This document shows positions 16,373 to 41,813 of a stretch of 64,000 nt of DNA, piece by piece (the stretch's first letter is position 1; each line of letters starts with the position of its first letter). Source of the DNA: an uncultured bacterium (GTDB lineage Bacteria > Acidobacteriota > Thermoanaerobaculia > Multivoradales > J023); the NCBI GenBank assembly GCA_965366625.1, contig CBDUGP010000038.1, positions 4,239-68,238 on the forward strand, written 5' to 3'. A program made the position numbers and the translations under genes. Under the pieces are notes generated by a model that made no database searches, had not been told where the DNA came from, and saw only the letters and a list, made by a program, of their open reading frames with translations.

Positions 16373-17527
16373 TCATCGTTTGCCGGCAAAAACCTGAACC
16401 CAAAGAATCTTGAAGTCGCCGTCCTTTTCGCCCAGGGCCATGCCAGTGCCGATTTCCCTCAATTTTCGGTGGAGGATGTTGGCGCGGTGTCCCGGGCTGG
16501 CCATCCAGCCCTCCATCACCTGTTCCACTCCGGTTTGGCCGCTACCCAAATTCTCGGCAACCCGAGGCGGTTCATAGCCGATTCTGTTTACCCGATCCCG
16601 GACCGATTTTCCTTCGGGAGAGGTATGGCCATAAAAACCACGTTCGAGCATATCTTCTGCGTATTTTTGAGCCACGCGATCCAACGCAGGGTGGCTATCG
16701 AGAGGGCGTAGGCGCAGCTTGCGTCGCTCTTGATTGACGAGAGTTAGAACCTGTTCGCGTACTTTTGAGAGATCGCTCAGAGGTCGAGTGGCGTCTAAAT
16801 AGTAGGCGACCCTGGAGGTGGCCGCGATGAGGTAGTAGAACCTGAGGCGCCCGAAGTCGGCGCTGCCGATGCCGAGATGTTGCAGACTCGGGTTGTGGAG
16901 ATTGTCAAAGGTGTGACGTGCACGGACCATCCATGAGTCGACCCATGGCCCCGGCTCACCGGCTCCACCGGCGTAATAGGTGGTGGTGATTTCGAAGTAG
17001 ATATAACCGCGCGCTTCGAGCAAGGCGGCAGCTCGGTCCGCGGACAGGTCGACCCCCAACCAACTGCCCGAGCGGACCACCTCATCGGCAAAGGTCTGAG
17101 CCACTGCTTGGACGTCGGGGTGGCGAAGGAAAGGCTGCAAGCCGAGCGCGATCCGTTCGTTCTGGATTCGTTGCGCCAAATAGGCCGAGATGGGATCGGA
17201 ATCCGCGACCCTAGGAGAGGCAGGTTCGGCGTCGGTCTCTACGTTGGTCTCTACGTTGGTCTCTACGTCGGTCTCTACGTCGGTCTTGAAGTCGGTTCCT
17301 TGACCCAACGAAACCGCCGCCGTCGTTGAGCAAAACCAAAGAAGGCAGATGGCTGCCGCTCGCAACCATCTGCCTTCTACTGGGGACCTAGCAGTCTCGG
17401 ACTTAGCAGTCTCGGACCTAGCAGTCTCGACCGCGTTCGCGTTGACCACTACCGAGCCGGCCACGGACCGTGGGCGTTCATTGGGCGGTCTTCTCCACCG
17501 CACGGAGGTCGGCTGGGATCCGTTCAC
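16373..17527 (-). CDS. Secreted CAP/SCP (PR-1/YkwD-like) domain protein, two CAP-like modules, with VETD/VETN and ETAKS peptide repeats
   Basis: C-terminal 'YGHTSPEGKSVRDRV...GENLGSGQTGVEQVMEGWMASPGHRANIL' CAP signature; signal peptide 'RWLRAAAICLLWFCSTTAAVSLG' only at aa 53, so start may be an internal TTG (~17362). Confidence 0.75.
   Translation of the reverse strand: MNGSQPTSVRWRRPPNERPRSVAGSVVVNANAVETARSETAKSETARSPVEGRWLRAAAICLLWFCSTTAAVSLGQGTDFKTDVETDVETNVETNVETDAEPASPRVADSDPISAYLAQRIQNERIALGLQPFLRHPDVQAVAQTFADEVVRSGSWLGVDLSADRAAALLEARGYIYFEITTTYYAGGAGEPGPWVDSWMVRARHTFDNLHNPSLQHLGIGSADFGRLRFYYLIAATSRVAYYLDATRPLSDLSKVREQVLTLVNQERRKLRLRPLDSHPALDRVAQKYAEDMLERGFYGHTSPEGKSVRDRVNRIGYEPPRVAENLGSGQTGVEQVMEGWMASPGHRANILHRKLREIGTGMALGEKDGDFKILWVQVFAGKR
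17234..17293. repeat. 12-bp tandem repeat ggtctctacgtt x5 inside CAP gene (encodes VETD/VETN x4)
   Basis: Visible in sequence. Confidence 0.9.
17387..17431. repeat. 15-bp tandem repeat cctagcagtctcgga x3 in CAP gene 5' region (encodes ETAKS/ETARS repeats, or lies in the leader if the internal start is used)
   Basis: Visible in sequence. Confidence 0.9.
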
Positions 17528-18965
17528 TCGTAGGTGATAAATCCAGGGTTCATGATGCCGTCGGGGTCAAAGGTCTTCTTCGCTGCCTTGAATCTTTCCC
17601 AGGTCTCGGTGCCGAAGTGGTTCTCCCAATCCTCGGGGGTGTTGAAGGTGATGTACCCCGACAAGTAACGCTTGCCGCCGTAGCCGATGGAAAGCTTGCT
17701 GACCATGTCGAGGTTTTCGAGCGCCATGTCGAGAAATTGAGGCGGAACCGCCGGCAAGATGCCCCAACCCATGACGAAATCTCCGCCCGGATGTTTGAAG
17801 AAAGGCACGTCGGAAGTATCACCACGGGAGGGCCAGAGCAGGATGTGTCCCGCCGGGCCCAGGCTTTGGGGCGGCAAGTTGTCGAGCGCGAATTCGATGA
17901 ACTCTTGGGCTTTGTCCCACGGCAATACGGATTCCATCCAAGGGTGGGCCATTTGCCAATTGCCGGAGTTGTGCCAGATCTCGAAGACCGGCTCTAGTCG
18001 ACGACAGAATTCTTCTTGGGTGTATTCGTCGGTTTGCAGGTGGCGATGGAAGTTGAGGTCCTTGAGCAGCTCTTCGTCGTTCGGCTCCTCTCCTTCCTCG
18101 TACTCCACGGTCAAGAACATGGGGTAGGTCCAATAGGCGTAGAGCTGAGCACCCTCCCTCAATTTCAAGCCGTCACCGATTCGTTTCATGAAGATCGGGC
18201 ACGGGGCACAGCGGGACTCGAGGGTGTGGAAGCGGGTGTCGTTCGGATCCATGACGCTTTCTGCGTCTTTCATGAACACACCGAGGTCGTCGTAGAGCAG
18301 GTGGTACATGCGGATCTTCTGCAGCGGCGCAGCTTGGTTTTCACCCGGGTGATGATGCCGAATTGGCTGAGCCCGGAGCGTACGCTGTTGAATAGGTCGG
18401 CATTCTCTTCCCGCGAGCAAGTGACGATGTCACCGGCTCCGGTGACCACCTCAAGTTCGATGGCGCTGTCGGCTTGGGTGCCGTATTTGTAGGAAGCGAC
18501 ACCGAGACCTGCCACTGAAGTGGTTCCGGCAATACTCACCCCGAGATTGTTGGTGAGCACCGGGGGCACAAAACCCATCGGCACGACTTTGACCACCAGA
18601 TCGTGCCAAACCACCCCACCGTCACAATCGGCGTAAAGTTCATCTTCGTTGATGCTGTGGATGGTTTGCATGGCGCTGGTATCGACCACCACACCGCCGT
18701 TGGTGGTGCTTTGCCCGGTCTGGGTATGGCCTTGGCCACGGGCCACGATCGGAACCTTGAATTTTCGGCAGTAGCGAATCACCTCTGCGACTTCTGCGGC
18801 GTTGGTGCAACGGGCGATGGCGCCGGGGGTTTGGAAGACCACCTTGCCGAAGTCGGTCTCAAATTTTGAGCGCTCGTCTGCACGTAAATCGATACGGTCG
18901 CCGAATGCCTCGGCAAGTCCTTGGATAGCTTTCGACAAAGCCTCTCCTTCGGCCATGGAACTCAT
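17524..18965 (-). pseudogene. Cytokinin dehydrogenase-like FAD-linked oxidase split by a 1-nt frameshift near 18328-18335 (pseudogene or sequencing error)
   Basis: ORF 18270-18965 = FAD_binding_4 (PCMH) domain 'VPIVARGQGHTQTGQSTTNGGVVVD...GIITRVKTKL' then junk; ORF 17524-18420 in another frame resumes 'AAPLQKIRMYHLLYDDLGVF...KRYLSGYITFNTPEDWENHFG...FDPDGIMNPG' = CKX cytokinin-binding C-terminus. Confidence 0.6.
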
Positions 18966-25272: not shown

Positions 25273-26643
25273 CTACGGCAAGACCCTCAGGAGTGAGCTA
25301 CCTCCGGGAGCATTGACCTCGGCCCGGACGGCGCCCAGCTCGCGGAGCTCTGGGGCCGAATCGAGGATCGGCACCGCCGTGACTCCGTCTGGGCGAAGGG
25401 ATTCGAGGCTGCACCTTCCAAGCTCCCCTTCAAGCTGCGTGTCGTTTAGGGATGGCTCGAATTTAGCGAAGACCCGGATGTAGTTGTCGGTCAAACCGGT
25501 CCAGAAATCTCCCCTCCGCTCCTCCCAGACCACGCTGGCGGTTTCGCCGAGTCGGCTTTGCCAGAAAGCTCGCTCGCTCTCCGCCCCGGCTCCACGCAGG
25601 ATCGCGGTCCGCTCTTTTTTGACCTGATGCTCCACCGGGTCGGGCAGGGTTTCGGCGTGGGTTCCTTGGCGGGGCGAGAACGTGAAAATGTGCGGCCGAG
25701 CAAAGGCCAGGTGCTGCACGAATTCAAGGCTCTCGGCAAATTCTTCGTCGGTTTCCCCGGGGAAGCCCACGATCACATCGGTGGTCAGAGCCAATCCCGG
25801 AATGTGCGCCCGTAGCTTCTCCGCCAAGGCTCGGTATTGATCGGCGGAATAGGGGCGACGCATTCGCTTGAGGGTGGCCGAGCAGCCGCTTTGTAACGAC
25901 ATGTGGATGTGGCGGCAGAGGCGAGGGTCCTGCCAAAGATCCAATAGGCGGTCGTCGAATTTCCACGGCGCGATGGACGTCAGGCGCAATCTGGGCACGG
26001 ACGTGCGCTGTAGGATCATCGAAACCAGGTCGAAGAGTCTTCTGCCCGCGTGCTCGTATTCTGAGATTTGCACCCCGGTGACAACCACTTCACGGTATCC
26101 GCCATCCGCCAGGGCCTGCACCTCTGCCACCACATCTTCGACGGAGCGACTCCGTTGGCGTCCTCGGGTGGTGGGGATGATGCAGAAGGAGCAGCGCATA
26201 TTGCAGCCGTCTTCCACCTTCACCAACGCCCTGGACAGGCCAAAGTCGAGTGGCACGTAGGGAATCGCCAGGGGTTCGGCGCTTTGGGCCTGGGGTATCC
26301 GGTCGGGAAAGGCCTCATGGACCTTCTGGAGCAGGTCGTCTTTGAGATCGTTGGTGACCAAGAGATCGACTCCGGCCAGGGCTGCCGCCTCTTTCGGAGC
26401 TTCGGTGGCATAACAGCCGGTCAACACGGTTTTCATGTCCGGATTCAGGCGATGGCCGCGACGTGCGGTTTTTCTGGAATCCCGGGCGGCCAGATGGGTC
26501 ACGGTGCAGGAATTGACCACATGTAAGTCGGCTTCGGACAAGGATGGAGCGAGGCTGTGACCCGCCGCCAGAAATTGTCGCGACAATCGGTCGACTTCAG
26601 CTTGATTGAGCTTGCAGCCCAAATTAGTGAAAAAAACTCGCAT
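25273..26643 (-). CDS. Radical-SAM methylthiotransferase, MiaB/RimO/MtaB family (MtaB-like)
   Basis: UPF0004 'MRVFFTNLGCKLNQAEVD', radical SAM 'GCNMRCSFCIIP', C-terminal TRAM-like region. Confidence 0.85.
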   Translation of the reverse strand: MRVFFTNLGCKLNQAEVDRLSRQFLAAGHSLAPSLSEADLHVVNSCTVTHLAARDSRKTARRGHRLNPDMKTVLTGCYATEAPKEAAALAGVDLLVTNDLKDDLLQKVHEAFPDRIPQAQSAEPLAIPYVPLDFGLSRALVKVEDGCNMRCSFCIIPTTRGRQRSRSVEDVVAEVQALADGGYREVVVTGVQISEYEHAGRRLFDLVSMILQRTSVPRLRLTSIAPWKFDDRLLDLWQDPRLCRHIHMSLQSGCSATLKRMRRPYSADQYRALAEKLRAHIPGLALTTDVIVGFPGETDEEFAESLEFVQHLAFARPHIFTFSPRQGTHAETLPDPVEHQVKKERTAILRGAGAESERAFWQSRLGETASVVWEERRGDFWTGLTDNYIRVFAKFEPSLNDTQLEGELGRCSLESLRPDGVTAVPILDSAPELRELGAVRAEVNAPGGSSLLRVLP

Positions 26644-26785
26644 GTGGGAAGGCATCTCTCTACGTCCGGCTGGGCTAGATCGGGTCCAGCAGCAGACTTG
26701 AAGGGGGAAGAGCCTGGCGCAGCGGGATCCCGGCGGAAGCTGATCGTAACATGGGGACGAGCAGGTGGAACTCTCGGGAACCGGC

Positions 26786-28321
26786 TCAAATTTTCGAAAT
26801 CTCGGCCGAACCCAGCAGCTCTTTGGCCCCGGGATAGCCCTTCAGAAGTACCGCTCGCACCGTCTCGTGGACCAGGGGGCGCAATCGGCGTGCTGCCTGT
26901 TGTGCGTTCAGGTTTGCTCGGTGGGTCGCCAAGCTCTGCCACATCTCTTGCCATTCCGGATGGCGTGCCTTGAGTTCGGCGGTGACGGCGTCCAACCACC
27001 GGCGCGATGCTTCATGGTCACGAAATTCCCCCCGACCGCGGCCGAAATGGGCGACGGCCAAATAGCGCAGTAGGGCTTGGGCGGCCAAAGAGTCGAGAAA
27101 AGTCTGGGACCAGGCCACGGAAGGCATCTTGTCGCCTTTGACCAGCCGATAACCCCGCGCCAGCCCGGCGCCTCCGACCGCACCGAGAATTGCTCCAGCC
27201 AGCATACCTCCGCCGAAAGTCAGCCCGCCGGCCAGCAAATCCGCGGCCAGCCCGCCGACCGCGCCGGAGACTACTCCGCCCAATAGGGCTCCACGTTCCG
27301 TATCGAGGGCATCCTCCCCTTCCACCGAAAAGGCGTCGAGCTGTTTGTCGATTTCGGCGGCCACCGTGCCTTCCAATTGATGGCGAGCCAAAAGTTCGGA
27401 CATCAGGTCCTCGCTGCCGTCGACCGCCCGCCGGCCGAGCGCCGCCATGGCCGCATCCTTCTCCGCTCGACTCGGGCGTCGGCTGGCCAGGGACTCTCGG
27501 TCGAGGGCCGCGCCGGCCAAATAGCCGGCGATGGCCTCGACGCAGCGATCCATCACGTCGAGGTTTCGGCGATTCCAAGCTTGTCTCAGCTCGTGCATCA
27601 AGGGCCGCGACGGCTCGGGCAGCAATGGCTCTAGATCCCGCAGCAGGTGATCTTCTTCGACCCAACAGCGGTTGTAGGCGTCGAGGGCCCCCACACCACG
27701 AACCACTTGGAAGCGCCGTGTGTGGTCTCGCCAACGTTCGATTCGCGGCGTCAGGGGTTGGTTTTGAAAGCTGGTATCGCCGGTTTGGTTGAGCAGAATC
27801 CATACCGGTACGTCGAGCCAATCCAGCAGGGCGAGTTCGTGGTCTACATAGCCGGCTTCGTCGGGCTCTTCGGTGGCGTTGACCAAATACAGGACCAAGT
27901 CCGCCTGCTCGCGCACATTGAGGGTCGCCTGCTGGGAGCACCAAAAAGGTCGATCGGTGTAGCGGTCCCAGGTTTGTTGCAGGAACCACCAAACCGGGCG
28001 ATCCGACCGCCGGAGGCGCTGGAGCAATCGGGCGGAGTCGCCGAAGCCAGGGGTATCTGCCAACAACAAGCGAGAGCCGGAGTCGAGCTGAATCAGCTCG
28101 AAGATCTCGGCCTGATCGGTAACGTGGGCTTGATCCAGAACTTGGCCGACGTCCCGCCGAAGCAAGGTCCTGGCCAGACTGGTTTTTCCCACATTGGTGT
28201 GGGAAACCAAGCTGAGGGTGATGTCGGTAGGCGCCGGCAGAGAAGGCTCAGTGGGCTCAGTGGGCTCAGCTTCGGACAGCTTCGGCTGCGGTGAATGCTC
28301 TGTTGAGTTTTCCGGGCTCAT
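26786..28321 (-). CDS. DUF3482-type membrane GTPase
   Basis: P-loop 'LVSHTNVGKTSLARTLL', G3 'LADTPGFGDS', long linker, C-terminal Gly-zipper TM 'GALLGGVVSGAVGGLAADLLAGGLTFGGGMLAGAILGAVGGAGLA'; start at MSPENS overlapping upstream stop (ATGA). Confidence 0.65.
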   Translation of the reverse strand: MSPENSTEHSPQPKLSEAEPTEPTEPSLPAPTDITLSLVSHTNVGKTSLARTLLRRDVGQVLDQAHVTDQAEIFELIQLDSGSRLLLADTPGFGDSARLLQRLRRSDRPVWWFLQQTWDRYTDRPFWCSQQATLNVREQADLVLYLVNATEEPDEAGYVDHELALLDWLDVPVWILLNQTGDTSFQNQPLTPRIERWRDHTRRFQVVRGVGALDAYNRCWVEEDHLLRDLEPLLPEPSRPLMHELRQAWNRRNLDVMDRCVEAIAGYLAGAALDRESLASRRPSRAEKDAAMAALGRRAVDGSEDLMSELLARHQLEGTVAAEIDKQLDAFSVEGEDALDTERGALLGGVVSGAVGGLAADLLAGGLTFGGGMLAGAILGAVGGAGLARGYRLVKGDKMPSVAWSQTFLDSLAAQALLRYLAVAHFGRGRGEFRDHEASRRWLDAVTAELKARHPEWQEMWQSLATHRANLNAQQAARRLRPLVHETVRAVLLKGYPGAKELLGSAEISKI

Positions 28322-29778
28322 GGTCGGCTTTCTCGCTGAGGCCAGAGGGCTTCGGCGGCGTTCTCGAGGTGAAGGCTCAAGGTCTCGGATTGATCCAGTT
28401 CGAGAAAGGCGACCGGCAGCTCGACGTGATCCAGAACCCGCTGCCAAGCCCGTCTTCGGGATTCGATGCGCCCACCGGAGTCGTCACTGAGTCTCTTTTT
28501 GAACGGAGACTCGTCGATCACCACCAAGAGCGACTGGCCGTCGACCCGTTGGTTGCGCAAGTTTTCGAGCCATTCTCCATGCACTTCCAGCTCGGGGGTT
28601 TGTCCGGCGCTGAATACCGCCACCCGCAGACCCGCCCCACCGGCTTCGGGCAGCTCGTCGCCGTAGCTGAGGTTCGGTGCCGTTTGAATTTGTGCCCTTG
28701 CGCCCACGAGATCCAAGAGCAAAGTCCTCAGGGTAGTCAGGGTCTTCTCGGTCGCACGGTAGCTGTAGAGCAGGATCTGAACTTTTTCCTCGCGGGTATC
28801 CACCGAGGCTTCCAGGCGCCGAATGTAGCTGTCCTGGAGATCGAAGGCCACTCGGCGGCGCCAAAGCTGAATGCGCAGCAAATCCCAGCCGGCCAGCAAG
28901 AGGCGCGGCACTCCGACTCCGAGGCCTGCGATCAAAGCCCAGGCATGGATCCAGGGCGCTGCGGGGCCGGAAGCGGGCGCAGCGATGGTGGCGGCCGAGG
29001 GCAGGTCCAAATCCAGGATGGCTCGGGCCGGTGCCAGCAGGGTCGCCAGAAATCCGTCCACCACCTCGACGCCCAAGAAAGTGCTTTCCCAGGTCGCCCG
29101 ATATTCGAACGCGACGCCTCGGGCGTACATGCCGACGATGACCCCGAGCACGGCCATCAATGCACCGAGATGGAATGCGGCGCGAATGCCCGCTGCAAGG
29201 GCCGGTTGCGCGATGGGCAGCCAAGCGCCAACGAAGCTGCGATGGATTCTCGCTTCGAGGCCTGTGTCGTCGGAGTTCGAGGCTCGACCGGAAGCCAGGG
29301 GTGAAAAGCGCTGCCACCAAGGTGCGTCGGCCGTTTCCCTCCGAGGAATCAAAAAGCGGATCGACATCCAAAGATAAATCGCGAGATTCCAAAGCAAGAG
29401 ACCCACCAAGGGTGGTGCCAGGATGTTGACCGCTCGGTTTGGACCGAGGGCGTTGGTGGCTAAGCCGAAAGCGAAGGCGGGAATCAACAATGCGGCCAAC
29501 CAGCGGAGAGGAATCTCGCGGCTTTGCAAGCGTCGCCACAGGTCGGGCCGGGTTTTGTGCAAACGTTCGACGATGGCCCTTGCTCGTAAGGCCAACCATT
29601 GTTTGGGGTGTGCATGCTCGGCGATGGCTTCGCGGGTCGCGTTCCGTCGCCACTGGACGGGAACCAATACCCCCTCCCGATCCTCCTGCTCCAACGCCCG
29701 CGCCAGCAGTACGTTTCGGGCATTGCCGGCGGAGAGGCGAAAGGTCGACATGGGTTCAGTCGTGGTCTGCTTCCCCAT
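28318..29778 (-). CDS. DUF2868-type membrane protein (partner of DUF3482 GTPase)
   Basis: Multiple TM helices, no catalytic motif recognised; adjacency and 4-nt overlap with DUF3482 gene; start ambiguous (Met at 29778/29793 with GGGGAAG RBS inside a 15-bp repeat, or 29751 coupled 4 nt after KS stop). Confidence 0.55.
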   Translation of the reverse strand: MGKQTTTEPMSTFRLSAGNARNVLLARALEQEDREGVLVPVQWRRNATREAIAEHAHPKQWLALRARAIVERLHKTRPDLWRRLQSREIPLRWLAALLIPAFAFGLATNALGPNRAVNILAPPLVGLLLWNLAIYLWMSIRFLIPRRETADAPWWQRFSPLASGRASNSDDTGLEARIHRSFVGAWLPIAQPALAAGIRAAFHLGALMAVLGVIVGMYARGVAFEYRATWESTFLGVEVVDGFLATLLAPARAILDLDLPSAATIAAPASGPAAPWIHAWALIAGLGVGVPRLLLAGWDLLRIQLWRRRVAFDLQDSYIRRLEASVDTREEKVQILLYSYRATEKTLTTLRTLLLDLVGARAQIQTAPNLSYGDELPEAGGAGLRVAVFSAGQTPELEVHGEWLENLRNQRVDGQSLLVVIDESPFKKRLSDDSGGRIESRRRAWQRVLDHVELPVAFLELDQSETLSLHLENAAEALWPQRESRP

Positions 29779-31414
29779 CCAGGTCTTCCTCATCCGGGTC
29801 TTCCCCATTCGCGCCGAGCCCATCCAAGGGCCTCGAAACCACGCATGCGTTGATGCCGCCTACTCCCATGGACAGCTTGCCCACCGGACCCTGGGGTGCC
29901 GGGCATTCCCGATCGAATACGAAGTGGTCGTGTACTTCGGCGATTTGGGAGTTCAGTTCACCCTGGGCCAAGGGCGTCGGAAAGAGTCGGCCCCGTTGGT
30001 AGCCCAAATATTGGGCGGTCAGTTCCCAGCCACCGCCCGCGGACATGCCGTGGCCGAAGGTCCCCTTTCGAGCCGAAACCAACACGGATTCGGGCATTTC
30101 GGAGCGCACCATCTCCACTTCGTTGAAGTCTCCCGGGGTGGCCGTGGCGTGGAGATCCCACGACGTTATCGAACTCGGGTCGACCGCCGATTCTTTGAAA
30201 GCGAGGTGCATGGCGGTGGTCGGCCCGTCTTTCGAAGGGGTGATGATGTGGTCTGCGTCCGAGGTCACACCGACCGCTACCGGCTCCATGCCCAAGGGTT
30301 TGAAACCCTTGCTTTCCAAGACCTCCCGGGCGCCGACGATCCACACCACCGCGCCGCCGGCGATGTGAGTGCCGCGCAATTGAGTCAGGGGTTTAGAAAG
30401 CTGAGCGTCGGCAGAGATCACCCTGGCGTTGTAGAAACCACCCACCGTGAGGGGGTGGGGCGCGGGGTCCGTCGCGCCGATCACCACGGCGTCGGCTTCG
30501 TTCCGGCGGATAGCGTCAAGGGCCAATTTCAGGGTGACCCCGAAGGTCGAGCAGGCCGCGCCCACCGCCAGGGTAGCTCCGGTGATGTGGCCCAACATGG
30601 AGATCTGGGCCGCTGCAATATTGTCGATATTCCAAAGCAAGTTAGAAGAGACGGCCTGCCAAGGGGGCAGAGGCACTCCCCACTTCTTCTCCAGTCGTCG
30701 CAGACGCCGTTGTTTTTCCTTGATCGCCGACAGCTTGCCGGACTCCACGTCGCCCTCCACCGCCACGCCTTCAATTTCCCGTTGTTCGGCTAGAAATTGC
30801 TGAAGCTGCGGGCTATGGCCGGCCCAGAACTGCCACCAGGCATCCTCGAGTTCGTCTCGCTCGTCCTCATGGGCTCCGTGGGGAGAGGTGGGAATTTCGG
30901 CTGCGACGACCGGTGGAGCCCCGAAGAGCTGCTCGGGTTCGAGGGCCTGGCCGCCCTCATGGGCGCGGCGAGCGGAATTGTTGTCCACTCGGGCCCAAAA
31001 TCGATTCCAACGCCGTTGGGCGCGGTAGAGCGAGAGGGACTGCTGATATTGGACGTCCAGGTCACCGAGACCGGTGCCGATATAGACGTGGGTTCGGGTG
31101 CCGAGGCTTCGAAGCTCCTCCTCTAATCCCGGATTTTGTCCCAGGGCTTGGATGAAGCTACCGATGGCATATTGAATCGGACTTCCCATTTTGCTTTCGA
31201 GCTGGGAGAAACGATTGGGTTTGAATCGCTCGATGACCCACTCCCGGTAAACCGAAAAATCAAATTCCGGTACGCCCACCAGGAAATTGTTCGGGCCGAA
31301 GCCGTCGAACGATCCGAGCCAGGAATCGGCCTCCGTCAGCCGGTCGGCAAAGGCGTCGATATTCGGTGAGCGGGGCGCTACCAAGCCCCAACCATAGATT
31401 CCCACTTTACGCAC
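29756..31414 (-). CDS. Beta-ketoacyl-[ACP] synthase (FabF/FabB-like elongating KS) with ~120-aa insertion and acidic C-terminal tail
   Basis: Active-site Cys 'GATLAVGAACSTFG', His 'HATATPGDFNE' and 'KGTFGHGMSAGGG' (Cys-His-His triad); GTG start with AAGGAG RBS. Confidence 0.8.
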   Translation of the reverse strand: MRKVGIYGWGLVAPRSPNIDAFADRLTEADSWLGSFDGFGPNNFLVGVPEFDFSVYREWVIERFKPNRFSQLESKMGSPIQYAIGSFIQALGQNPGLEEELRSLGTRTHVYIGTGLGDLDVQYQQSLSLYRAQRRWNRFWARVDNNSARRAHEGGQALEPEQLFGAPPVVAAEIPTSPHGAHEDERDELEDAWWQFWAGHSPQLQQFLAEQREIEGVAVEGDVESGKLSAIKEKQRRLRRLEKKWGVPLPPWQAVSSNLLWNIDNIAAAQISMLGHITGATLAVGAACSTFGVTLKLALDAIRRNEADAVVIGATDPAPHPLTVGGFYNARVISADAQLSKPLTQLRGTHIAGGAVVWIVGAREVLESKGFKPLGMEPVAVGVTSDADHIITPSKDGPTTAMHLAFKESAVDPSSITSWDLHATATPGDFNEVEMVRSEMPESVLVSARKGTFGHGMSAGGGWELTAQYLGYQRGRLFPTPLAQGELNSQIAEVHDHFVFDRECPAPQGPVGKLSMGVGGINACVVSRPLDGLGANGEDPDEEDLDGEADHD

Positions 31415-31528: not shown

Positions 31529-33370
31529 TCACGGTTTCGTGACCGAAGCCTGAAAGTCGGAAGATGACGAGCTGGACAGGTTTCGGTGTTGGTAGAGCCG
31601 GCCGTCCTCGAATCCCAGACCCCGATAGTAATGTCGAGTTCCGATCGCCGAGATGACCGCCAGGTTCTCGAATCCTTCCTCACTTGCCAAGCTCGCCGCC
31701 TCGTCCACCAAACGGCGTCCTAAGCCCAGGTGTTGTGATTTCCCGCGTCCCTCTTCTCCGGCCACCCCGCCAAAGGCCACGATGCCGCCATAAACGTGGA
31801 CCTCGCGAATCATGGCGCTGCGGCCCAATTCTTCGAGGAAGACAGCTTCCGCAGGCAGTGACAATCGGCAGAAACCCACAATCTTGTCGCCGGGGGTTAC
31901 GAATTGGAGAAAGATCTCGTCGCCGATCGAGGTTTGATAACGGGTTTTGGTTAGTCTCAGCTCGTCCGGATCCACGGCCCCGTCTCGAATCTCACGAGCC
32001 CGAATGTCACGGCTTTGGCGGCCTGTGTCCCGCAGCCGTCGCTCGACCACTTCCCGAAAGTTGGTGATCTTATTGCCGTCGACGATGTCGTCACCGGGGA
32101 TGTCCCGAACAATCCGAGTCAGGCGACAATATTCGGGGGTTTTGAGCATGGCTTCGGTGATCACCTCGAGAAGCTCGTCCTCGGTGTACGGACGCCACAG
32201 CCCGGATTCGAATTGCTGCATCAGCTCAGCGGTCTCGATCAAGCTACAGGGATAGATCTTGAGTTCGTCGGGTCGAAAGTCCTTGTCGCCGAAGAGTCGA
32301 TCGTAATCTTTGATGTCGTTCTGCGGATCGGAGCCGTAGAGATTGGGCATCCAATGGGCGTGCAGCTTGAATCCCGCTTGGCGGAGCAGCCGCACTGCGC
32401 GTCGAGTCGCTGCCACATCGTGGCCTCGTTTGTTGGCCTCCAAGACCTTGTCGTCGAGGCTTTGGAAGCCGATTTGAACTTTGGTGCAGCCGAGCCGTCG
32501 CACCCTTTCGACCTCTTGCTCATCGATGTGGTCGGGGCGGGTCTCGATCACCAAACCGACGCAGCGGGCGTCGGCGGATTCGTTGAGTTCTTGCGCGGCT
32601 TCCAGCTCCTCCCAGGTGGAAGATGCCTCGTGCTCTACCATGGCCTTGCCCAACCCACGGCCCAGGTAGGCGGACACCATTTGATTGTAGGTACGTTCCA
32701 TGGAATTGCCGGCGACCTCACCCTCAATGGCCGCAAAGTCGAAATCGCCGCTAATCCGAGCCGGTAGCTCGTCGGCCTTCTTGGGCGAGAAGTCGTTCAT
32801 CGCGTCGAAACAGCGTCGAATGAACCAGATCTGGTAGTCCTCAGGGTAGAAGGACCAAGTTCCACCGAGGATGATCATCTCGACCTTATCCGCTCGGTGT
32901 CCGTTGTGATGGTAGGTCAGCAGCCGGCCCAAGGTTTGGCCGTAGGGGTCGAATTGGTGCTGGGCCGCCCGTTGGGCTCCCGGCTCCCGTGCCAAATAGC
33001 TCTTGGGCATGCGCACGTCGTTGGGGCAGAAAATGCACTTGCCGGGGCACGGATAGGGCTGGGTGAGCACGGTCACCGGGGCCACGCCTGAGAGCGTGCG
33101 AATGGGCTTCATCCGGATCCGCGAGACAAATTCCTGCTCTTCGGTCCAGCCGAAGCGGTCGGCGAATCGTCGGAAAGCCCGAATGATTTCGCTTTTGGAG
33201 TATGCTCCCCCACCCATCTTCGGATGCCGCCGGATGATTCGATGGTAGCTTTCGCGGTCCAACGAGGGCGCGGATTGTAGATCCTCGATCAGGGGCACGA
33301 GGTGTGCCTCGTGGGCCTCGGGATCGAAGCTCAAATAGGAGCGGTGAGATTGCAGGTCTAGGGTCGGCAT
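31529..33370 (-). CDS. Elongator Elp3 homologue (radical SAM + GNAT acetyltransferase; tRNA U34 carboxymethylation-type enzyme)
   Basis: Radical SAM cluster 'CPGKCIFCPND', Elp3 hallmark 'VIETRPDHIDEQEV...GCTKVQIGFQSLDD', C-terminal GNAT 'HLGLGRRLVDEAASLA'. Confidence 0.9.
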   Translation of the reverse strand: MPTLDLQSHRSYLSFDPEAHEAHLVPLIEDLQSAPSLDRESYHRIIRRHPKMGGGAYSKSEIIRAFRRFADRFGWTEEQEFVSRIRMKPIRTLSGVAPVTVLTQPYPCPGKCIFCPNDVRMPKSYLAREPGAQRAAQHQFDPYGQTLGRLLTYHHNGHRADKVEMIILGGTWSFYPEDYQIWFIRRCFDAMNDFSPKKADELPARISGDFDFAAIEGEVAGNSMERTYNQMVSAYLGRGLGKAMVEHEASSTWEELEAAQELNESADARCVGLVIETRPDHIDEQEVERVRRLGCTKVQIGFQSLDDKVLEANKRGHDVAATRRAVRLLRQAGFKLHAHWMPNLYGSDPQNDIKDYDRLFGDKDFRPDELKIYPCSLIETAELMQQFESGLWRPYTEDELLEVITEAMLKTPEYCRLTRIVRDIPGDDIVDGNKITNFREVVERRLRDTGRQSRDIRAREIRDGAVDPDELRLTKTRYQTSIGDEIFLQFVTPGDKIVGFCRLSLPAEAVFLEELGRSAMIREVHVYGGIVAFGGVAGEEGRGKSQHLGLGRRLVDEAASLASEEGFENLAVISAIGTRHYYRGLGFEDGRLYQHRNLSSSSSSDFQASVTKP

Positions 33371-33470
33371 GGTTGGGCTCTGGGGAGGTGACGGCTCTTC
33401 GGAACCGAAGAATGGGGCCCGATGAAGCTATCACGAATAGTTGTGGGCCTTACGACGGCCGAGGGAGCAG

Positions 33471-34244
33471 ATGGACGAAGATACCCGCCAGGCTCTGCTG
33501 AGCATCAATAAGCGCTTTTACGACGATTATTCCGACAGTTTTGGTGCCAGTCGCCAGAGACCCTGGCCGGCTTGGCAAACTCTGCTGGGTGATCCCAACA
33601 GCCCCGGGCAGGGTTCGTCGGATGAGCCCCTCAAGATTTTGGATGTGGGCTGTGGCAATGGTCGATTCGGCGCCTTGGTGACGAGCCTGGTCGATCGACC
33701 CGTGCACTACGTCGGTGTCGACCACAGCGCCGGCTTGTTGGACCAAGCGCGGGTGGATCTGAGCAGCAGAGTTGAACGGTTGCGGCTCGAGCAGCTCGAT
33801 CTCGGTGACGCGGATGCCAGACCTCCTGAACTCAAAGGCGGTTTCGACATCATCGGTATCTTCGGGGTTTTGCATCACCTGCCGGGAGAATCACATCGGC
33901 GCGGCCTGTTGAACCGGCTCGGCAGCCGATTGGCGCCTGGTGGACAGCTGTGGGCCTCCTGGTGGATGTTGCACCAAACCTCTCGTTTTGAAAAAAAGGT
34001 GGTGCCGTGGCATCGGTTGAGGGAAGAGAAACCACCCCTGGCAATGCCCGATCCCGACCTGCTCGAGCAAGGCGATACCCTATTGTCGTGGCAACGAGAC
34101 GGATTCGGCTTGCGCTACCTTCACTTCCCGTCAGGGCCGGAAATCGATCGCCTCCAACGGCTGGAGAATCTTGATTTCGTCAGAACGCTCGAATCCGATG
34201 GCCCGACCGGACGGGAGAATCTCTACCTCGTTTGGACATGCTAA
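33471..34244 (+). CDS. Class I SAM-dependent methyltransferase, Trm9/ALKBH8-MT-like
   Basis: 'FGASRQRPWPAWQTLL...ILDVGCGNGRF' matches Trm9 block 'FSxTRYKPWPxVxxFL...DVGCGNGKY'; divergent to Elp3; start 33441 or 33471. Confidence 0.6.
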   Translation: MDEDTRQALLSINKRFYDDYSDSFGASRQRPWPAWQTLLGDPNSPGQGSSDEPLKILDVGCGNGRFGALVTSLVDRPVHYVGVDHSAGLLDQARVDLSSRVERLRLEQLDLGDADARPPELKGGFDIIGIFGVLHHLPGESHRRGLLNRLGSRLAPGGQLWASWWMLHQTSRFEKKVVPWHRLREEKPPLAMPDPDLLEQGDTLLSWQRDGFGLRYLHFPSGPEIDRLQRLENLDFVRTLESDGPTGRENLYLVWTC

Positions 34245-36936: not shown

Positions 36937-39687
36937 CTATTGAATTAGAATTTCGAGTCGTGAACCCAAGGCCTTTAGATCTCGAATCGAGCTTCCCGAC
37001 TTGGACAGATCAAAGACCAGGCGAAGTTCTTGGCCGGGATGAAAGCCGAGCCGAATTCTCTTCAGCTCGTCGGTACCTACCGCAATCTCGCTTTTCGGGA
37101 AATTTTCCACGCCCAAGAGCGAGACCATCTCTCGATCGGCAGCCCAGGCCAAAGGATCATGGCGAAAGTCGTCGTTTGAGAACGAATCCGAGAATTGGAT
37201 CGTAATCCGGGTTCCTTGAGAGCTACGGCTCCAATCAATACCGGTTACAGCGCGGGCGCCGCCAATTGCCTGTGCCTGAGCAGCCCGATCCCGGTTTGGC
37301 GGTGGGGTCGGCGGAGGTACCGTCGCAGTCGCCGGCTCGATAGCAGGCGAAGACGTTTGACGCGCCGGTTCGTCAAACGCGGGAGCCACGACTTCAGGGG
37401 CAGTCTCAGTGATCGAGCCCCCAGGGTCGAGACCGGTCTCAGAACCGCTGTCGATCTCCGGCTCTGCCCCAACTTCAATCATTTCTTCTTGAAGCAGATC
37501 TTCCTCTCCGGTGGATTCGGCTTCGGCCCCAGAGGGGTCGACGGCGGGAGCGGGCTGGTGCTTCGGCGCCTTTCTGTTGCCTGCCTGGGCCACTACCTGA
37601 GAGTCGCTGCCGCTGCTCAATCCGACTAAGCTGGAAAGGGTGGCGCGGAAGAAATACACCCCAGCGACCAGCGCCGCCACGAGGCCCAGAGCAATGAGGT
37701 ACCGCCCAGCGCCTTTGCGGGGGGGAGGAGCAAAATCCTCACCTTCGGTCATCCAAGAATCGTCTTCTTGATCCGAATCCGGCCAGGGATCCACGAAATC
37801 AGCAGTGTGTGAGATCGGAGGCGGAGCCCCTCCAGCAGGGTCGGATGTCGAATCGGCAGGGTGGGTGCTGAAGAGAGAGCTGCCCGATGACCCGTCGTCT
37901 GTCGCCGAACTCAGAGGCTCCGACGGAGCAGCCGAGGCCCCTTGAGGTTCCGCGACCCCTTGGGGAACTCCCAATTCGCTTACCTTCTCAAAGGACGGTG
38001 AATCGAAAGACGAAGAATCGAAAGACGGTGAATCGAAAGAAGCCGCCTCGAAAGAAGGAGCTGCCGTGGCGACCTCCTCCCTCGGCGACTGCTCTGAGGT
38101 CGTCGCCGGAGTCGAGTCTGAGCTAAAGGACGATAGGGACGCGGTAGGAAGTACGTCGGTGCTCTCGGGAACCGCAGCGGCATCAAATTCAGACGACCCA
38201 GCAGAAGCATCATCGAATGACGGTGCTGCCGGCGGCTCAAAAGCCGGCATCTCGGCCGTCGGCTCGAAGGTCGGCATCTCGGCCGTCGGCTCGACATCGA
38301 ATGAGGGTTGGTCGAAGCTCGTTGGTGGCTCCCCCATCGAGGCACCTTTGCCGAACGAGATTTCCGCCGTGGGCTCAATGTCTGCCGTGGGCCCAATGTC
38401 TGCCGTGGGCTCAATGTCTGTTGGGCCCGCAGGGCTTTCCGAGCCTGCCAGGCCGCCGGGTCCGACAGGTGCCTCAAACGCAGGCGCTTCAAAACCAGGC
38501 TCGTCGGTCTCTGCTGAGCTGCCGACCAGGCTGAGTTGAGAGTCTGGGGCAAGGGTTGCGGGACCTGGATCAAAGGATATTTCCTCCGGCGGAGGGTCAA
38601 AATCGATCACCGGGTCTTCCAGCTCCACCGTGGCCTCGACCTCGTCCGCAGCCTCCATCATGCTGTCTTCGAGAGAAATTTCGCGCTTGTCAGGTGTCCC
38701 GGAGGCAGCACCTTGGGCCGGCGGATCCATGCTTGGAGCTTCGGCCGCCAAGAATAGTTCTGGCGCGGGATCCGCGGGCGGCGTTGAGAGAGGCAGAACT
38801 CCTTGGTGAGCTTGATTGGAACCTATCAAGGTCGGCTCCTCGGCGGAAATGTCTTCGAGTTTGAATTGTGTATCTGGACTCGAAGCCAAATGCGGCTTGG
38901 GAGTGCTCGAAGGAACTTTCTCCTCGATCGGAGGTGCCACCGGAGTCAATACTTGATTCGAGGAGACGGGTGGAACCGAAGGTGCGGCCGGCTCGGACGC
39001 GGCCGGCTCGGGGGCGGTCTGCTCAGATGCCGCAGCCGGAATCGTCGGGCGAATGGTATTGACCGCCTTTTCGACTTCTGGATCCGACTCCTCTGCCAGT
39101 AGGTCCCGCGGAACGCCCGGGAGCTTTTTGCCCCAGGGGGCGTCGAATCCCAATTGGGCTTGCTTCTGAACCGGAAGTTCTGCGGGGTTGGGCAAGCTCG
39201 GATTGACCTCTTGGACCGAAGTTCCCACCAACGTCGGCTCTTCCTCGCCCAGGGGATCGGGATTCACCGACATTTCCGAATCCGCAGAGATTCCACCCTC
39301 AGCAACTCTGTCCACCTCGAACGGAGGACCTCCTGCTTTCACCTGTTCCTCAAGCAACTTGAGCACCAGCTGGCGACCACTTTCGTCGATGGCCGTAAAT
39401 CGAACCCCCATGCCGGCCGGAGAATCCGGACCGAGGTCGTTGGGACGTTGCCACACCACAACCCCTTGTCCATGCAAGAGTCGGAAGCCGTCGGTCAACT
39501 TGAATTCGAAATGGACCTCAGTGCCGATCGGCCGAGGACGGTGAGTCTTAATGAAAACGCCGCCTAAGGAAATGCCGGCCCGATACTCTTCAACGAACGA
39601 AGAGAATTTCTCGAATCGAAGGGTGACATGTCCTTCCGGAGGAATCTGGCGGCGGAAAGAACCTGTTTCGTTGGGGCCGTCGGTCAT
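36937..39687 (-). CDS. PilZ domain - disordered repeat region - TM helix - C-terminal AMIN domain protein
   Basis: PilZ 'RRQIPPEGHVTLRF...AGISLGGVFIKT'; TM 'GRYLIALGLVAALVAGVYFF'; C-terminal 'RITIQFSDSF...RLVFDLSKSGSSIRDL' AMIN-like; repeat peptides DIEPTA x3, PTAEMP(T/A)FE x2, SFDSPSFDSSSFDSPSF. Confidence 0.75.
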   Translation of the reverse strand: MTDGPNETGSFRRQIPPEGHVTLRFEKFSSFVEEYRAGISLGGVFIKTHRPRPIGTEVHFEFKLTDGFRLLHGQGVVVWQRPNDLGPDSPAGMGVRFTAIDESGRQLVLKLLEEQVKAGGPPFEVDRVAEGGISADSEMSVNPDPLGEEEPTLVGTSVQEVNPSLPNPAELPVQKQAQLGFDAPWGKKLPGVPRDLLAEESDPEVEKAVNTIRPTIPAAASEQTAPEPAASEPAAPSVPPVSSNQVLTPVAPPIEEKVPSSTPKPHLASSPDTQFKLEDISAEEPTLIGSNQAHQGVLPLSTPPADPAPELFLAAEAPSMDPPAQGAASGTPDKREISLEDSMMEAADEVEATVELEDPVIDFDPPPEEISFDPGPATLAPDSQLSLVGSSAETDEPGFEAPAFEAPVGPGGLAGSESPAGPTDIEPTADIGPTADIEPTAEISFGKGASMGEPPTSFDQPSFDVEPTAEMPTFEPTAEMPAFEPPAAPSFDDASAGSSEFDAAAVPESTDVLPTASLSSFSSDSTPATTSEQSPREEVATAAPSFEAASFDSPSFDSSSFDSPSFEKVSELGVPQGVAEPQGASAAPSEPLSSATDDGSSGSSLFSTHPADSTSDPAGGAPPPISHTADFVDPWPDSDQEDDSWMTEGEDFAPPPRKGAGRYLIALGLVAALVAGVYFFRATLSSLVGLSSGSDSQVVAQAGNRKAPKHQPAPAVDPSGAEAESTGEEDLLQEEMIEVGAEPEIDSGSETGLDPGGSITETAPEVVAPAFDEPARQTSSPAIEPATATVPPPTPPPNRDRAAQAQAIGGARAVTGIDWSRSSQGTRITIQFSDSFSNDDFRHDPLAWAADREMVSLLGVENFPKSEIAVGTDELKRIRLGFHPGQELRLVFDLSKSGSSIRDLKALGSRLEILIQ

Positions 39688-40064: not shown

Positions 40065-41387
40065 ATGGACGAGCTGATTCTCCTGCCCGAGGATCAGGCG
40101 ATTCACGCATTCTTCGACGATTTGGATCGAATCGTGTTGTTGCGACTTTTGGTCGTGGTGGCAGTGGCTTCGGTGGCCGGCATAGTCGCGCTGCTGGTCG
40201 AGGGCTCCCCTCTTTGGCTGACCCTGCCCGCGCTTGCCCTGATTCTTGTGCGGGTCATCTTCTCAGCCTCGCGCCAAGCCTACTTCGAGCGTCACTTTCG
40301 TCCGATACTGTTGGCATATCTATTGCTGCACGGAATCGGCATCCGACTCTTTATGATGCTCAAGTGGCCCGACTTCTATTTGGTTCTCGATTATTTGCTA
40401 CCCCTGGTCCTGATCTTTTTCTGTCTGCGCCAGCTTCACCTCTTCTTGTTGCTCGGGCCGATGTGGGGAATCTCCGCGGGCCGTGACCTTGTTTCAGCGC
40501 TGATGGGTGCTTCGGAAGTTCAGGTCTTGCCGCTGATCGCAGTCAGCACGGTTTGCTTGGTGGTGTTTTTTTGGGTCGGCCGACAAACCCGGAAGCGACG
40601 CCGGGACTTCCTGTTGGTTTGGCGCCGGGAGCACCAAAGGCATCGCGAACGTCATCGAATGCAAGGGGAATTGGATGAGGCGCGCAGGATCCAGCTCAGC
40701 ATGCTGCCGCGCAGCGATCCGTCCCATCGCTTTTTCGACATCGCGGGTATCTCGATTCCAGCCAGTGAGGTAGGCGGCGACTACTACGAGTATTTTCAGT
40801 CCGGAATCGATCGCCAAGCGGTGGTCATCGCCGATGTCGCAGGACACGGTGTGGCCAGCGGTCTGCTGTTGGCGGGCGTTCGCAGCTGCCTCTATTTGCT
40901 CAAGGACTCACCCCACCGGCCGGTCGAAGTGTTGGAAAAGTTGGATCGCGTGGTTCGAGAGACCACCGGCCGACGCGAATTTGTGACCATGCTCTACGCC
41001 CTCTTCGATCCCCAACGGGGTGAGGTCAGCCTGGCATCCGCCGGTCATCCGCCGCTGCTCAGATACGTGGCTGCGACCGGCCAAGTAGAAGAAGCGGCCT
41101 TCTGCTCCCTGCCTCTCGGCACCCGATTGCGCCAGAGCCTAGAGGAAGTCCAAGTGCCCTATGCCACCGATGACATTTTCTTGCTCTACACGGACGGGAT
41201 CGCAGAGACGGTCAACAGCAAAGGTGATCTCTACGGCAACGAGCGGCTGTCTGGGCGCCTGAAGGCGACCGCTCACGACCGGACCGCAAAAGAGATTCGA
41301 GACACCCTTCTCGGAGATGTTTGGAGCTTCAAGGCGGACGGTGAGCAAACCGACGACATCACCCTCGTGGTCGTCAAGGTTCGCTGA
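40065..41387 (+). CDS. Membrane-anchored PP2C-type Ser/Thr phosphatase (SpoIIE/RsbU family)
   Basis: 'IPASEVGGDYYEYF', 'IADVAGHGVASGLL', 'LYTDGIAE', 'DDITLVVVKV'; N-terminal 5-6 TM segments; start at MDELILL. Confidence 0.85.
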   Translation: MDELILLPEDQAIHAFFDDLDRIVLLRLLVVVAVASVAGIVALLVEGSPLWLTLPALALILVRVIFSASRQAYFERHFRPILLAYLLLHGIGIRLFMMLKWPDFYLVLDYLLPLVLIFFCLRQLHLFLLLGPMWGISAGRDLVSALMGASEVQVLPLIAVSTVCLVVFFWVGRQTRKRRRDFLLVWRREHQRHRERHRMQGELDEARRIQLSMLPRSDPSHRFFDIAGISIPASEVGGDYYEYFQSGIDRQAVVIADVAGHGVASGLLLAGVRSCLYLLKDSPHRPVEVLEKLDRVVRETTGRREFVTMLYALFDPQRGEVSLASAGHPPLLRYVAATGQVEEAAFCSLPLGTRLRQSLEEVQVPYATDDIFLLYTDGIAETVNSKGDLYGNERLSGRLKATAHDRTAKEIRDTLLGDVWSFKADGEQTDDITLVVVKVR

Positions 41388-41403
41388 AGCTCGGTATCCC
41401 CAA

Positions 41404-41467
41404 GAGCGGCACCGGCAAGGAGCGGCACCGGCAAGGAGCGGCACCGGCAAGGAGCGGCACAGGCAAG
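41404..41467. repeat. 16-bp tandem repeat gagcggcaccggcaag x4 immediately downstream of the phosphatase stop
   Basis: Visible in sequence; last copy has one substitution. Confidence 0.9.
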
Positions 41468-41480
41468 ATGGGGTCAACGC

Positions 41481-41508
41481 AAAAAACCCCGGAGGTTCCG
41501 GGGCTTTA
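41481..41508. terminator. Bidirectional intrinsic terminator (strong for minus-strand tRNA-Glu transcript)
   Basis: Stem ccccgga-ggt-tccgggg flanked by aaaaaa (=UUUUUU on minus) and cttta on plus. Confidence 0.7.
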
Positions 41509-41599
41509 AGGTGGGAGTCGCGGGTCCGAATTTGGAGCGTCTCACCGAGGTGTCGACTGAGAGATGATCGCTGGCCTTTCAAGGCCTGCTTAGAATCTA

Positions 41600-41676
41600 G
41601 TGGTACCCCCAACGGGATTCGAACCCGTGTCGCCAGCTTGAAAGGCTGGTGTCCTAACCTGGCTAGACGATAGGGG
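41600..41676 (-). tRNA. tRNA-Glu (anticodon UUC), CCA encoded
   Basis: Reverse complement folds as cloverleaf: acceptor gccccta/tgggggt, anticodon stem ccagc/gctgg with loop cTTTCaa, T-arm acggg-ttcgaat-cccgt, 3' CCA. Confidence 0.85.
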
Positions 41677-41813
41677 CACGCAAAACGTGCCGGCCGGGCG
41701 GGTGTGCTCACCTCCGCGGCGGACGCGCAATGTAGCACAGAGCCGGTTTGTTTTCCAAGAGGTAATTTCAAGTCGAGTCTTCCGAAGTCCATTCAGCCGC
41801 CAATTGCCCCGAT

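Follow-up and report, generated by a model that had tools for sequence, protein, structure and literature searches.

Wobble-uridine chemistry of the xm5U kind (substituted 5-methyluridines) is usually described as split, with MnmE/MnmG acting in bacteria and Elp3/Elongator together with Trm9 acting in eukaryotes and some archaea. We analysed a 64,000-nucleotide stretch of DNA, hereafter the window, from an uncultured member of the Acidobacteriota (Thermoanaerobaculia; assembly GCA_965366625.1, contig CBDUGP010000038.1, positions 4,239 to 68,238), in which a gene for a bacterial Elp3 homologue stands back to back with a gene for a Trm9-like methyltransferase. Below we describe the two proteins, their conservation as a gene pair, and the tRNA modification pathway that they might constitute.

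The divergent gene pair and its Elp3

An earlier reading of the letters and open reading frames (ORFs), made without database searches and called here the sequence-only reading, had placed a full-length Elp3 divergently some 70-100 bp from a class I methyltransferase with Trm9-like N-terminal blocks. Both ORFs are present, with the two blocks that it had singled out, FGASRQRPWPAWQTLL and LDVGCGNGRF, in the methyltransferase ORF, and the locus is laid out as follows.

31529..33370, minus strand: Elp3 homologue of 613 amino acids (aa), with radical S-adenosylmethionine (SAM) and KAT/GNAT domains (from the ORF list, TIGR01211, Pfam Radical_SAM and Radical_SAM_C, and PDB matches)
33371..33470, between the genes: divergent intergenic region of 100 bp, presumed site of both promoters (from the sequence)
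33471..34244, plus strand: Trm9-like class I SAM-dependent methyltransferase, 257 aa from the ATG (from profile search, Foldseek, hhalign and a reciprocal hidden Markov model (HMM))

As delimited mechanically, the methyltransferase ORF covers 33441..34244 (plus strand) and encodes 267 aa from a TTG at 33441. The true start is probably the ATG at 33471, since a Shine-Dalgarno-like GAGGGAG lies 4 nt upstream of it and homologues start at the equivalent methionine (MDEDT), among them P0001, a 257-aa protein with 100% identity. The spacer then measures 100 bp; a start at the TTG (33441) would shorten it to 70 bp. A sigma-70 consensus scan of the 100-bp spacer, a scan that is uninformative for this phylum, found no match.

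The Elp3 homologue matched NCBIfam TIGR01211 with 481.8 bits against a cut-off of 350, over residues 76-594 and model positions 46-518 of 522. In phmmer searches it matched every solved Elp3 structure in the PDB, best that of M. infernus (6ia8; 7e-103, 348 bits), followed by D. mccartyi (5l7j; 2e-93) and the eukaryotic Elp3 structures (6e-81 to 6e-77), while Pfam GNAT families matched the C-terminal domain below gathering scores only. Alignment with these proteins located both catalytic signatures and three regions by which the protein departs from one or more of its characterised relatives.

33026..33049, minus strand: radical-SAM [4Fe-4S] motif C108-P-G-K-C112-I-F-C115 (Cx3Cx2C), aligned with CPHGKCIFC of M. 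infernus Elp3 (MinElp3)
31718..31735, minus strand: acetyl-CoA motif QHLGLG of the KAT/GNAT domain, residues 546-551, aligned with QHMGYG of MinElp3
33101..33370, minus strand: N-terminal extension, approximately residues 1-90, ahead of the GVAPVTV core (PDB and TIGR01211 matches begin at residue 75-76)
32609..32773, minus strand: clade-specific insertion of ~55 aa, approximately residues 200-254, with a conserved YN (phmmer, MAFFT)
31997..32014, minus strand: linker SRDIRA, residues 453-458, in place of the zinc-binding CRCIRC (alignment)

The cluster-binding residues C108, C112 and C115 were invariant in all 14 sequences of alignment A2 and also in 44 bacterial homologues. In the acetyl-CoA motif, Q546, H547, G549 and G551 were invariant in A2, and QHxGLG was kept among the same 44 homologues. 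With the TIGR01211 score, the cysteine triad and QHLGLG all intact, the description of this Elp3 as full length with its hallmark motifs stands.

The window Elp3 and its 44 bacterial homologues differed from M. infernus Elp3 in cysteine spacing, insertion, linker cysteines and N-terminal extension. The insertion is absent from M. infernus Elp3 as aligned, and the phmmer match to the PDB was accordingly split into residues 75-200 and 255-594. At the linker, no position of the zinc cysteine triad was conserved as cysteine in the clade alignment, and a single cysteine occurred in one of the homologues displayed (L019). Eukaryotic Elp3 also lacks this triad, which therefore does not define the whole Elp3 family. 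The N-terminal extension contains the basic stretches HRIIRRHPK and RAFRRFADR. The N-terminus of MinElp3 (aa 1-75) binds tRNA, while the Elp3 of D. mccartyi (DmcElp3) has no such extension (PMC6367351, Lin et al.), and by analogy the extension of the window Elp3 may bind tRNA as well.

Compared protein by protein, a close parallel is the archaeal stand-alone Elp3 of M. infernus (6IA8), likewise a single protein without Elp1, Elp2 or Elp4-6 and likewise with an N-terminal extension. That enzyme has a Cx4Cx2C motif, three zinc cysteines and no ~55-aa insertion, versus Cx3Cx2C, no zinc cysteines and an insertion in the window protein, and the host range of the window clade is bacterial, unlike that of archaeal Elp3. 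DmcElp3 (5L7J) is also bacterial and stand-alone and shares the two-domain architecture, but it keeps the zinc cysteines and has no extension; the window Elp3 is the opposite on both counts and carries the insertion in addition. The missing extension of DmcElp3 and these other differences indicate that the window clade is not of the Dehalococcoides type. Judged by its alignments, the Elp3 of this locus represents a distinct bacterial clade with an extension, an insertion of ~55 aa and no zinc cysteines.

The sequence-only reading had called Elp3 rare in bacteria. This is out of date: we found at least 583 Elp3-encoding metagenome stretches, and among species-level genomes dozens from Acidobacteriota, Myxococcota and Chloroflexota have an Elp3 gene. 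In the literature, a 2020 review confined bacterial Elp3 to Dehalococcoides (PMC7663514), and a 2026 paper speaks of 'numerous bacteria'.

The methyltransferase compared with Trm9

General-purpose searches placed the methyltransferase in the class I superfamily and little further. Pfam gave generic class I domains only (Methyltransf_12, 25, 23, 31 and 11), and NCBIfam scores stood well under their cut-offs for UbiG (28 against 103), UbiE (21 against 216), CmoA (17 against 193) and CmoB (17 against 209), with CpaM also weak. A single-sequence phmmer search of the PDB ranked Trm9 of Yarrowia (5cm2_Z) only fifth, in an alignment that paired SRQRPWP with TRYKPWP and LHHLPGESHRR with IHHFSTPERRR, so that a family profile was needed to separate Trm9 from the rest. 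Four homologues carry the name TRM9 from automated annotation by the Joint Genome Institute (JGI).

A profile built from the 40-sequence alignment A1 and searched against 177,635 distinct PDB sequences put Trm9 (5cm2_Z) first with 50.9 bits and an E-value of 1.1e-12. The runner-up scored 44.3 bits, and UbiG (~38 bits), CmoA/YecO (32-37 bits) and CmoM (8joz, 30.8 bits) ranked lower. The Trm9 signature anticipated by the sequence-only reading was thus recovered by profile search, and an affinity of the UbiE/CmoM type, which it had named as the outcome that would undo its assignment, was not borne out. The AlphaFold2 model of the protein (predicted local distance difference test score 93.8) has a Rossmann-like order of strands and helices; Foldseek with this model ranked Trm9 first, tied with YunM; Trm9 reached a template-modelling score of 0.73 on the target and, at 21%, the highest identity.

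Direct comparison of the family with yeast Trm9, for which the query sequence was verified as Trm9p at 100% identity (P0121), gave an hhalign probability of 98.3% and an E-value of 1.2e-14 over 216 columns spanning Trm9 residues 15-278, which includes the C-terminal RYYH and NWW motifs of Trm9 (RY.H and N.[YW] in the family). Such a probability is not decisive alone, as good alignments are common among class I methyltransferases, and we gave most weight to ranking, full-length coverage and active-site residues. In the reciprocal direction, an HMM built from yeast Trm9s only recovered 131 of the 132 family ORFs among 4,295 ORFs from the window and all loci; it gave the window protein 41.4 bits (E-value 2e-11) and the best unrelated ORF 21.4 bits. 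Profile, fold and reciprocal searches together identify Trm9 as the closest known relative of the methyltransferase, within a family of about 1,957 clusters at 50% identity (E <= 1e-30).

Mutational work on yeast Trm9 allowed a comparison at the level of single residues. Létoquart et al. 2015 mutated the conserved residues around the methyl group of SAM (PMC4678810). Alanine substitution caused loss of function at R29, D72, H116, W145, W168, R241, Y243 and N271, whereas wild-type zymocin sensitivity was kept in the H24, K31, H115, R122, E148, Q149 and D270 mutants (PMC4678810). Activity fell to ~5% in R29A, was absent in H116A and W145A, and was strongly impaired in R241A, Y243A and N271A, and H115A, assayed in vitro, kept roughly one quarter of the wild-type activity (PMC4678810). 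In the docking model of the same study, N271 reads uracil O2/N3 through bidentate hydrogen bonds and H115 reads O4, W145 stacks on U34, and R29, H116 and R241 hold the carboxylate of the cm5 group (PMC4678810).

We located these positions in 121 members of the family aligned by MAFFT with 20 Trm9 sequences. The residues below are numbered on the 267-aa ORF, and 'Sc' marks the yeast protein.

33552..33554, plus strand: R38, equivalent to ScTrm9 R29, in the motif F..SR.RPWP.W (Arg in 120/121 family members and 20/20 Trm9 sequences)
33642..33665, plus strand: SAM-binding motif I, DVGCGNGR, residues 68-75 (invariant in A1, aligned with DVGCGNGK of Trm9)
33873..33878, plus strand: H145-H146, equivalent to ScTrm9 H115/H116 (His in 120/121 and 121/121, respectively)
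33963..33965, plus strand: W175, equivalent to ScTrm9 W145 (Trp in 121/121)
34113..34124, plus strand: R225-Y226-L227-H228, equivalent to ScTrm9 R241-Y242-Y243-H244 (Arg in 121/121)
34218..34220, plus strand: N260, equivalent to ScTrm9 N271 (Asn in 117/121)

Seven of the eight essential positions were kept (window R38, D94, H146, W175, W190, R225 and N260), each in 91-100% of the 121 members, and the equivalents of Trm9 Y18 and H115 were also conserved. Among the dispensable positions, H24, R122, E148 and Q149 had no majority residue, K31 was replaced by Arg in 68 of 121, and D270 was conserved. This pattern is as expected if the same substrate moiety is recognised, namely a uridine with a carboxyl group on its C5 side chain. 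For W168 the pairing has two candidates: the alignments match it to W190 of the VPW motif, and hairpin topology offers W217 as an alternative, both tryptophans being ~90% conserved or better. The true structural equivalent could be W217 on the GD.LL.W strand. The motif to which W217 belongs, E209/G211/D212/L214/L215/W217 (E.GD.LL.W), was family-specific and nearly invariant, with no clear Trm9 counterpart in either hhalign or MAFFT alignments.

In sum of features, the methyltransferase resembles Trm9/ALKBH8 as known from the Y. lipolytica Trm9-Trm112 structure (5CM2) in its class I fold, the DVGCGNG motif, the N-terminal F..(S/T)R..PWP and the HH dyad, and further in the W after strand beta5 and the VPW, RY.H and N.(W/Y) motifs. 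Its gene is also tied to that of Elp3, an enzyme whose product is the substrate of Trm9. It differs in that identity is only ~21-26% and the variable insertion of eukaryotic Trm9 is absent from the family, which has the conserved E.GD.LL.W strand there instead. A bacterial analogue by reaction is CmoM of E. coli (8JOZ), a class I enzyme that esterifies a U34 side-chain carboxyl (uridine 5-oxyacetic acid, cmo5U, to its methyl ester, mcmo5U); however, CmoM is a far weaker match (30.8 versus 50.9 bits for Trm9), belongs to the CmoA/CmoB pathway and has no link to Elp3.

Conservation of the pair and the proposed pathway

We scanned the surroundings of the methyltransferase gene in one genome per GTDB species (80 loci, 69 of them evaluable) for an Elp3 gene within 10 kb. 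Elp3 was present in 51 of the 69 and not found in 18, the other 11 loci having too little upstream sequence. Among the paired loci, 35 were directly divergent with <400 bp between the starts, 14 were divergent with a spacer of 0.4-2.8 kb, and 2 had another orientation. The pair occurred in all evaluable loci of Acidobacteriota (9/9) and of Myxococcota or 'Deltaproteobacteria' (13/13), and in 22/39 of Chloroflexota. From the other side, with the Elp3 alignment searched against metagenomes, 57 of the 70 loci that could be evaluated had the methyltransferase gene divergently upstream, 54 of them within 400 bp. The divergent pairing that had been read from a single locus is therefore conserved in both search directions. 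Both proteins belong to their families and are inherited as a divergent pair.

Pairwise distances of Elp3 and the methyltransferase correlated over 90 loci (r = 0.79, reached by 0 of 999 permutations), which fits co-inheritance, although any two genes that are inherited vertically should behave in the same way. The nearest genome was a metagenome-assembled genome of the Thermoanaerobaculia (Elp3 89.5% and methyltransferase 66% identical). Clustering of ORFs across the 80 loci yielded no third gene consistently linked to the pair, with Trm112 and thiolation enzymes among those sought, and no conserved small neighbour. A predicted membrane protein of ~136 aa, not Trm112-like, stood between the two genes in seven Chloroflexota loci (L013, L037, L061, L072, L074, L076, L048) and adjoined the methyltransferase gene in two more (L036, L057). 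Neither this protein nor a MutY-like gene that follows the methyltransferase gene in 7 loci was taken as part of a module, nor were the kinases, ATP-binding-cassette ATPase and short-chain dehydrogenase/reductase that occurred only scattered near the pair. The Chloroflexota loci with a methyltransferase gene and no Elp3 within 10 kb included L008, L010, L022, L023, L035, L041, L044, L053, L055 and L070, among others. Some loci with a member of the family came from bins labelled Pseudomonadales, Saccharibacteria/Patescibacteria, Spirochaetaceae or Pleurocapsa (L034, L038, L040, L042, L056, L058, L064, L068); mis-binning or wrong assignment seems a likelier source of these labels than a genuine host range.

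In the literature, Elp3 makes 5-carboxymethyluridine (cm5U) at position 34 with SAM and acetyl-CoA, as shown for archaeal Elp3 and for Elongator (PMC7663514, PMC6367351), and Trm9 methylates the cm5U carboxylate to give 5-methoxycarbonylmethyluridine (mcm5U) (PMC4678810, PMC6367351). The genes for Elp3 and Trm9 cluster in Sulfolobus (PMC6144793). We propose that the divergent genes of the window form a two-step wobble-uridine module of this eukaryotic/archaeal type. In the first step, the stand-alone Elp3, with its radical-SAM [4Fe-4S] and KAT domains, would carboxymethylate C5 of tRNA U34 to cm5U, as membership of its family suggests. In the second, the adjacent Trm9-like methyltransferase would esterify the cm5U carboxylate with SAM to mcm5U, a role to which its homology, the retained uracil- and carboxylate-recognition residues and the conserved gene pairing all point. 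Co-expression of both activities would be maintained by the 100-bp divergent control region that the genes share. We judge it likely that the locus encodes a functional cm5U/mcm5U pathway of the Elp3 plus Trm9 type. The sequence-only reading had arrived at the same two steps; profile, fold, active-site and pairing evidence support it, with mcm5U as the predicted product.

Several observations weigh against this pathway. Pfam and NCBIfam contain no curated Trm9-specific model, and every NCBIfam match of the methyltransferase was far below its cut-off. The lead of Trm9 among look-alike class I methyltransferases was modest, at 6.6 bits in the profile search and a tie with YunM in Foldseek. The one essential position that is not kept, Y243, was replaced by Cys in 108, Leu in 11 (including L227 of the window), Ala in 1 and Val in 1 of the 121 members. 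In 17/39 evaluable Chloroflexota loci, the 10 kb around the methyltransferase gene hold no Elp3. Eukaryotic Trm9 strictly depends on Trm112, which also binds the archaeal enzyme, and no Trm112 was detected near the bacterial pair: a regular-expression scan of the window and the 80 loci, a crude one, gave spurious matches only. According to the 2020 review, direct evidence for xcm5U in bacteria is lacking, and DmcElp3, the only bacterial Elp3 assayed so far, was weakly active on tRNA (PMC7663514).

Some of these points would also fit other explanations. The methyltransferase might be coupled to Elp3 and yet carry out another reaction, on a different Elp3-derived intermediate, at another tRNA position or towards another final side chain, in which case the change of Y243 to Cys or Leu and the E.GD.LL.W hairpin motif would reflect altered specificity. 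The replacement of Y243 throughout the family fits this explanation, as do the absence of a clear Trm9 counterpart for E209/G211/D212/L214/L215/W217, the atypical character of the Elp3 clade itself (insertion, no zinc cysteines) and the apparently unsettled order of steps to mcm5U and 5-carbamoylmethyluridine (ncm5U) in yeast (PMC3110198). It is nevertheless unlikely, as the family retains the equivalents of N271, H115, W145, R29, H116 and R241, and retention of these uracil- and carboxylate-contact residues argues for the same substrate chemistry as in Trm9. Those uracil-recognition residues of the partner also speak against a more distant possibility, that Elp3 and the methyltransferase act on something other than U34 (a different RNA, a lysine in a protein, or some small molecule) and that the likeness to Elongator is evolutionary only. 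Such a role would accord with the lack to date of any detected cm5U derivative in bacteria, with the weak tRNA activity of DmcElp3 (both PMC7663514) and with the three respects in which the clade differs from characterised Elp3s. We consider it very unlikely given the full-length TIGR01211 match well above cut-off, the basic N-terminal extension of a kind that binds tRNA in MinElp3, and the finding that acetyl-CoA hydrolysis by bacterial, archaeal and eukaryotic Elp3 enzymes is triggered only by tRNA (PMC6367351).

Least probable, and strongly disfavoured, is a chance neighbourhood, in which Elp3 lies beside an unrelated class I enzyme with a housekeeping role (UbiE, UbiG, CmoM or a small-molecule type). 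The generic Pfam domains of the methyltransferase, the weak NCBIfam matches to CpaM, UbiG, UbiE and CmoA/B, all far below cut-offs, and the fifth rank of Trm9 in the single-sequence phmmer search of the PDB are what such an enzyme would show. Chance does not sit well with directly divergent adjacency in 35/69 genome and 54/70 metagenome loci from three phyla, however, and the family profile puts Trm9 above UbiG, CmoA and CmoM. Conserved, too, are the motifs specific to Trm9 at both termini and the residues of its active site.

The proposed Elp3 plus Trm9-type pathway would extend a known route to new hosts and involves no new mechanism. In the window and 108 related loci, the gene for a Trm9-like enzyme stands in tight divergent linkage with that for Elp3 across Acidobacteriota, Myxococcota and Chloroflexota, a picture that contrasts with reviews from 2017-2020 that knew few bacterial Elp3s (PMC7663514) and no bacterial Trm9, the 2017 review finding no bacterial homologues of Trm112-dependent methyltransferases detectable (PMC5372719). 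In the open-access literature searched, we came across no account of a Trm9 in bacteria or of a bacterial gene pair of Elp3 and Trm9. If true, the pathway would be the first for mcm5U in bacteria, might replace or coexist with MnmE/MnmG, and would bear on the origin of the eukaryotic Elongator/Trm9 route. The methyltransferase may work without a Trm112 activator, but this is speculative: the neighbourhood encodes none, yet the 64-kb window covers only part of the genome. More broadly, the proposition that at least three phyla make mcm5U34, possibly mcm5s2U34 (its 2-thio form), by way of a zinc-free, insertion-bearing Elp3 clade and a Trm112-free stand-alone Trm9 seems to us evenly balanced. 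The locus makes bacterial mcm5U, Trm9 function without Trm112 and the role of the atypical Elp3-clade features testable, and offers simple, soluble two-protein systems for the study of Elongator chemistry. The interest is mainly for specialists in tRNA modification; the family is large, and some members are already labelled TRM9 by JGI.

Surrounding genes in the window

The sequence-only reading had also drawn in MtaB, another enzyme that modifies the tRNA anticodon loop, as part of the same gene run.

25273-26655, minus strand: MtaB, belonging to the gene run that includes Elp3 (TIGR01579 score 375.3 bits, cut-off 357)

Its identity and its place in the run were confirmed, but a link to the pair was not, with MtaB near the pair in only 2 of 160 loci, both from close relatives (L001, L050). 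Three genes lie between MtaB and Elp3, encoding a beta-ketoacyl synthase (KAS)-like protein, a DUF2868 protein and a GTPase with DUF3482. These neighbours were syntenic in L001 and L050, the DUF2868 and KAS-like genes also in L020, and a Nudix gene in L001 alone. Neighbours shared with close relatives only indicate lineage-specific synteny, and we rejected on these grounds a larger tRNA-modification operon comprising MtaB, the intervening genes and, on the far side of the methyltransferase gene, the acyltransferase and Nudix genes.

26786-29823, minus strand: GTPase (MMR_HSR1) fused to DUF3482, together with a protein weakly matching DUF2868; the ORFs overlap by ~130 bp and have no NCBIfam match
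29756-31414, minus strand: KAS-like protein of 552 aa, with ketoacyl-synt from residue 259 and a long N-terminal half that is unmatched; FabF-type NCBIfam scores were all far below cut-offs

In Pfam scans, which covered the main ORFs from 10 to 57772 other than the small one at 41317-41673, no MnmE, MnmG, CmoA or CmoB was found in this part of the genome. The sole tRNA gene in the window is a tRNA-Glu(UUC) at 41601-41677 (minus strand), 7.4 kb from the methyltransferase gene. In yeast this type of tRNA is an Elongator substrate and carries mcm5s2U34. Its proximity to the pair is probably a coincidence.

Further genes lie elsewhere on the minus strand. The 854-aa protein encoded at 13760-16324 combines TIR_2 with SLOG cluster2, which suggests an anti-phage or nicotinamide adenine dinucleotide (NAD)-signalling defence gene. 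A gene resembling flavin adenine dinucleotide (FAD)-linked oxidase/cytokinin dehydrogenase at 17524-18965 appears to be split between two ORFs that overlap, with FAD_binding_4 at 18270-18965 and Cytokin-bind/FAD-oxidase_C at 17524-18420; a frameshift, a pseudogene or an error in the assembly might account for the split. A CHAT-domain protein with tetratricopeptide (TPR) repeats is encoded at 54881-57772, and at 36937-39687 lies the gene for a 916-aa protein in which an N-terminal PilZ domain is followed by long low-complexity, repeat-rich sequence.

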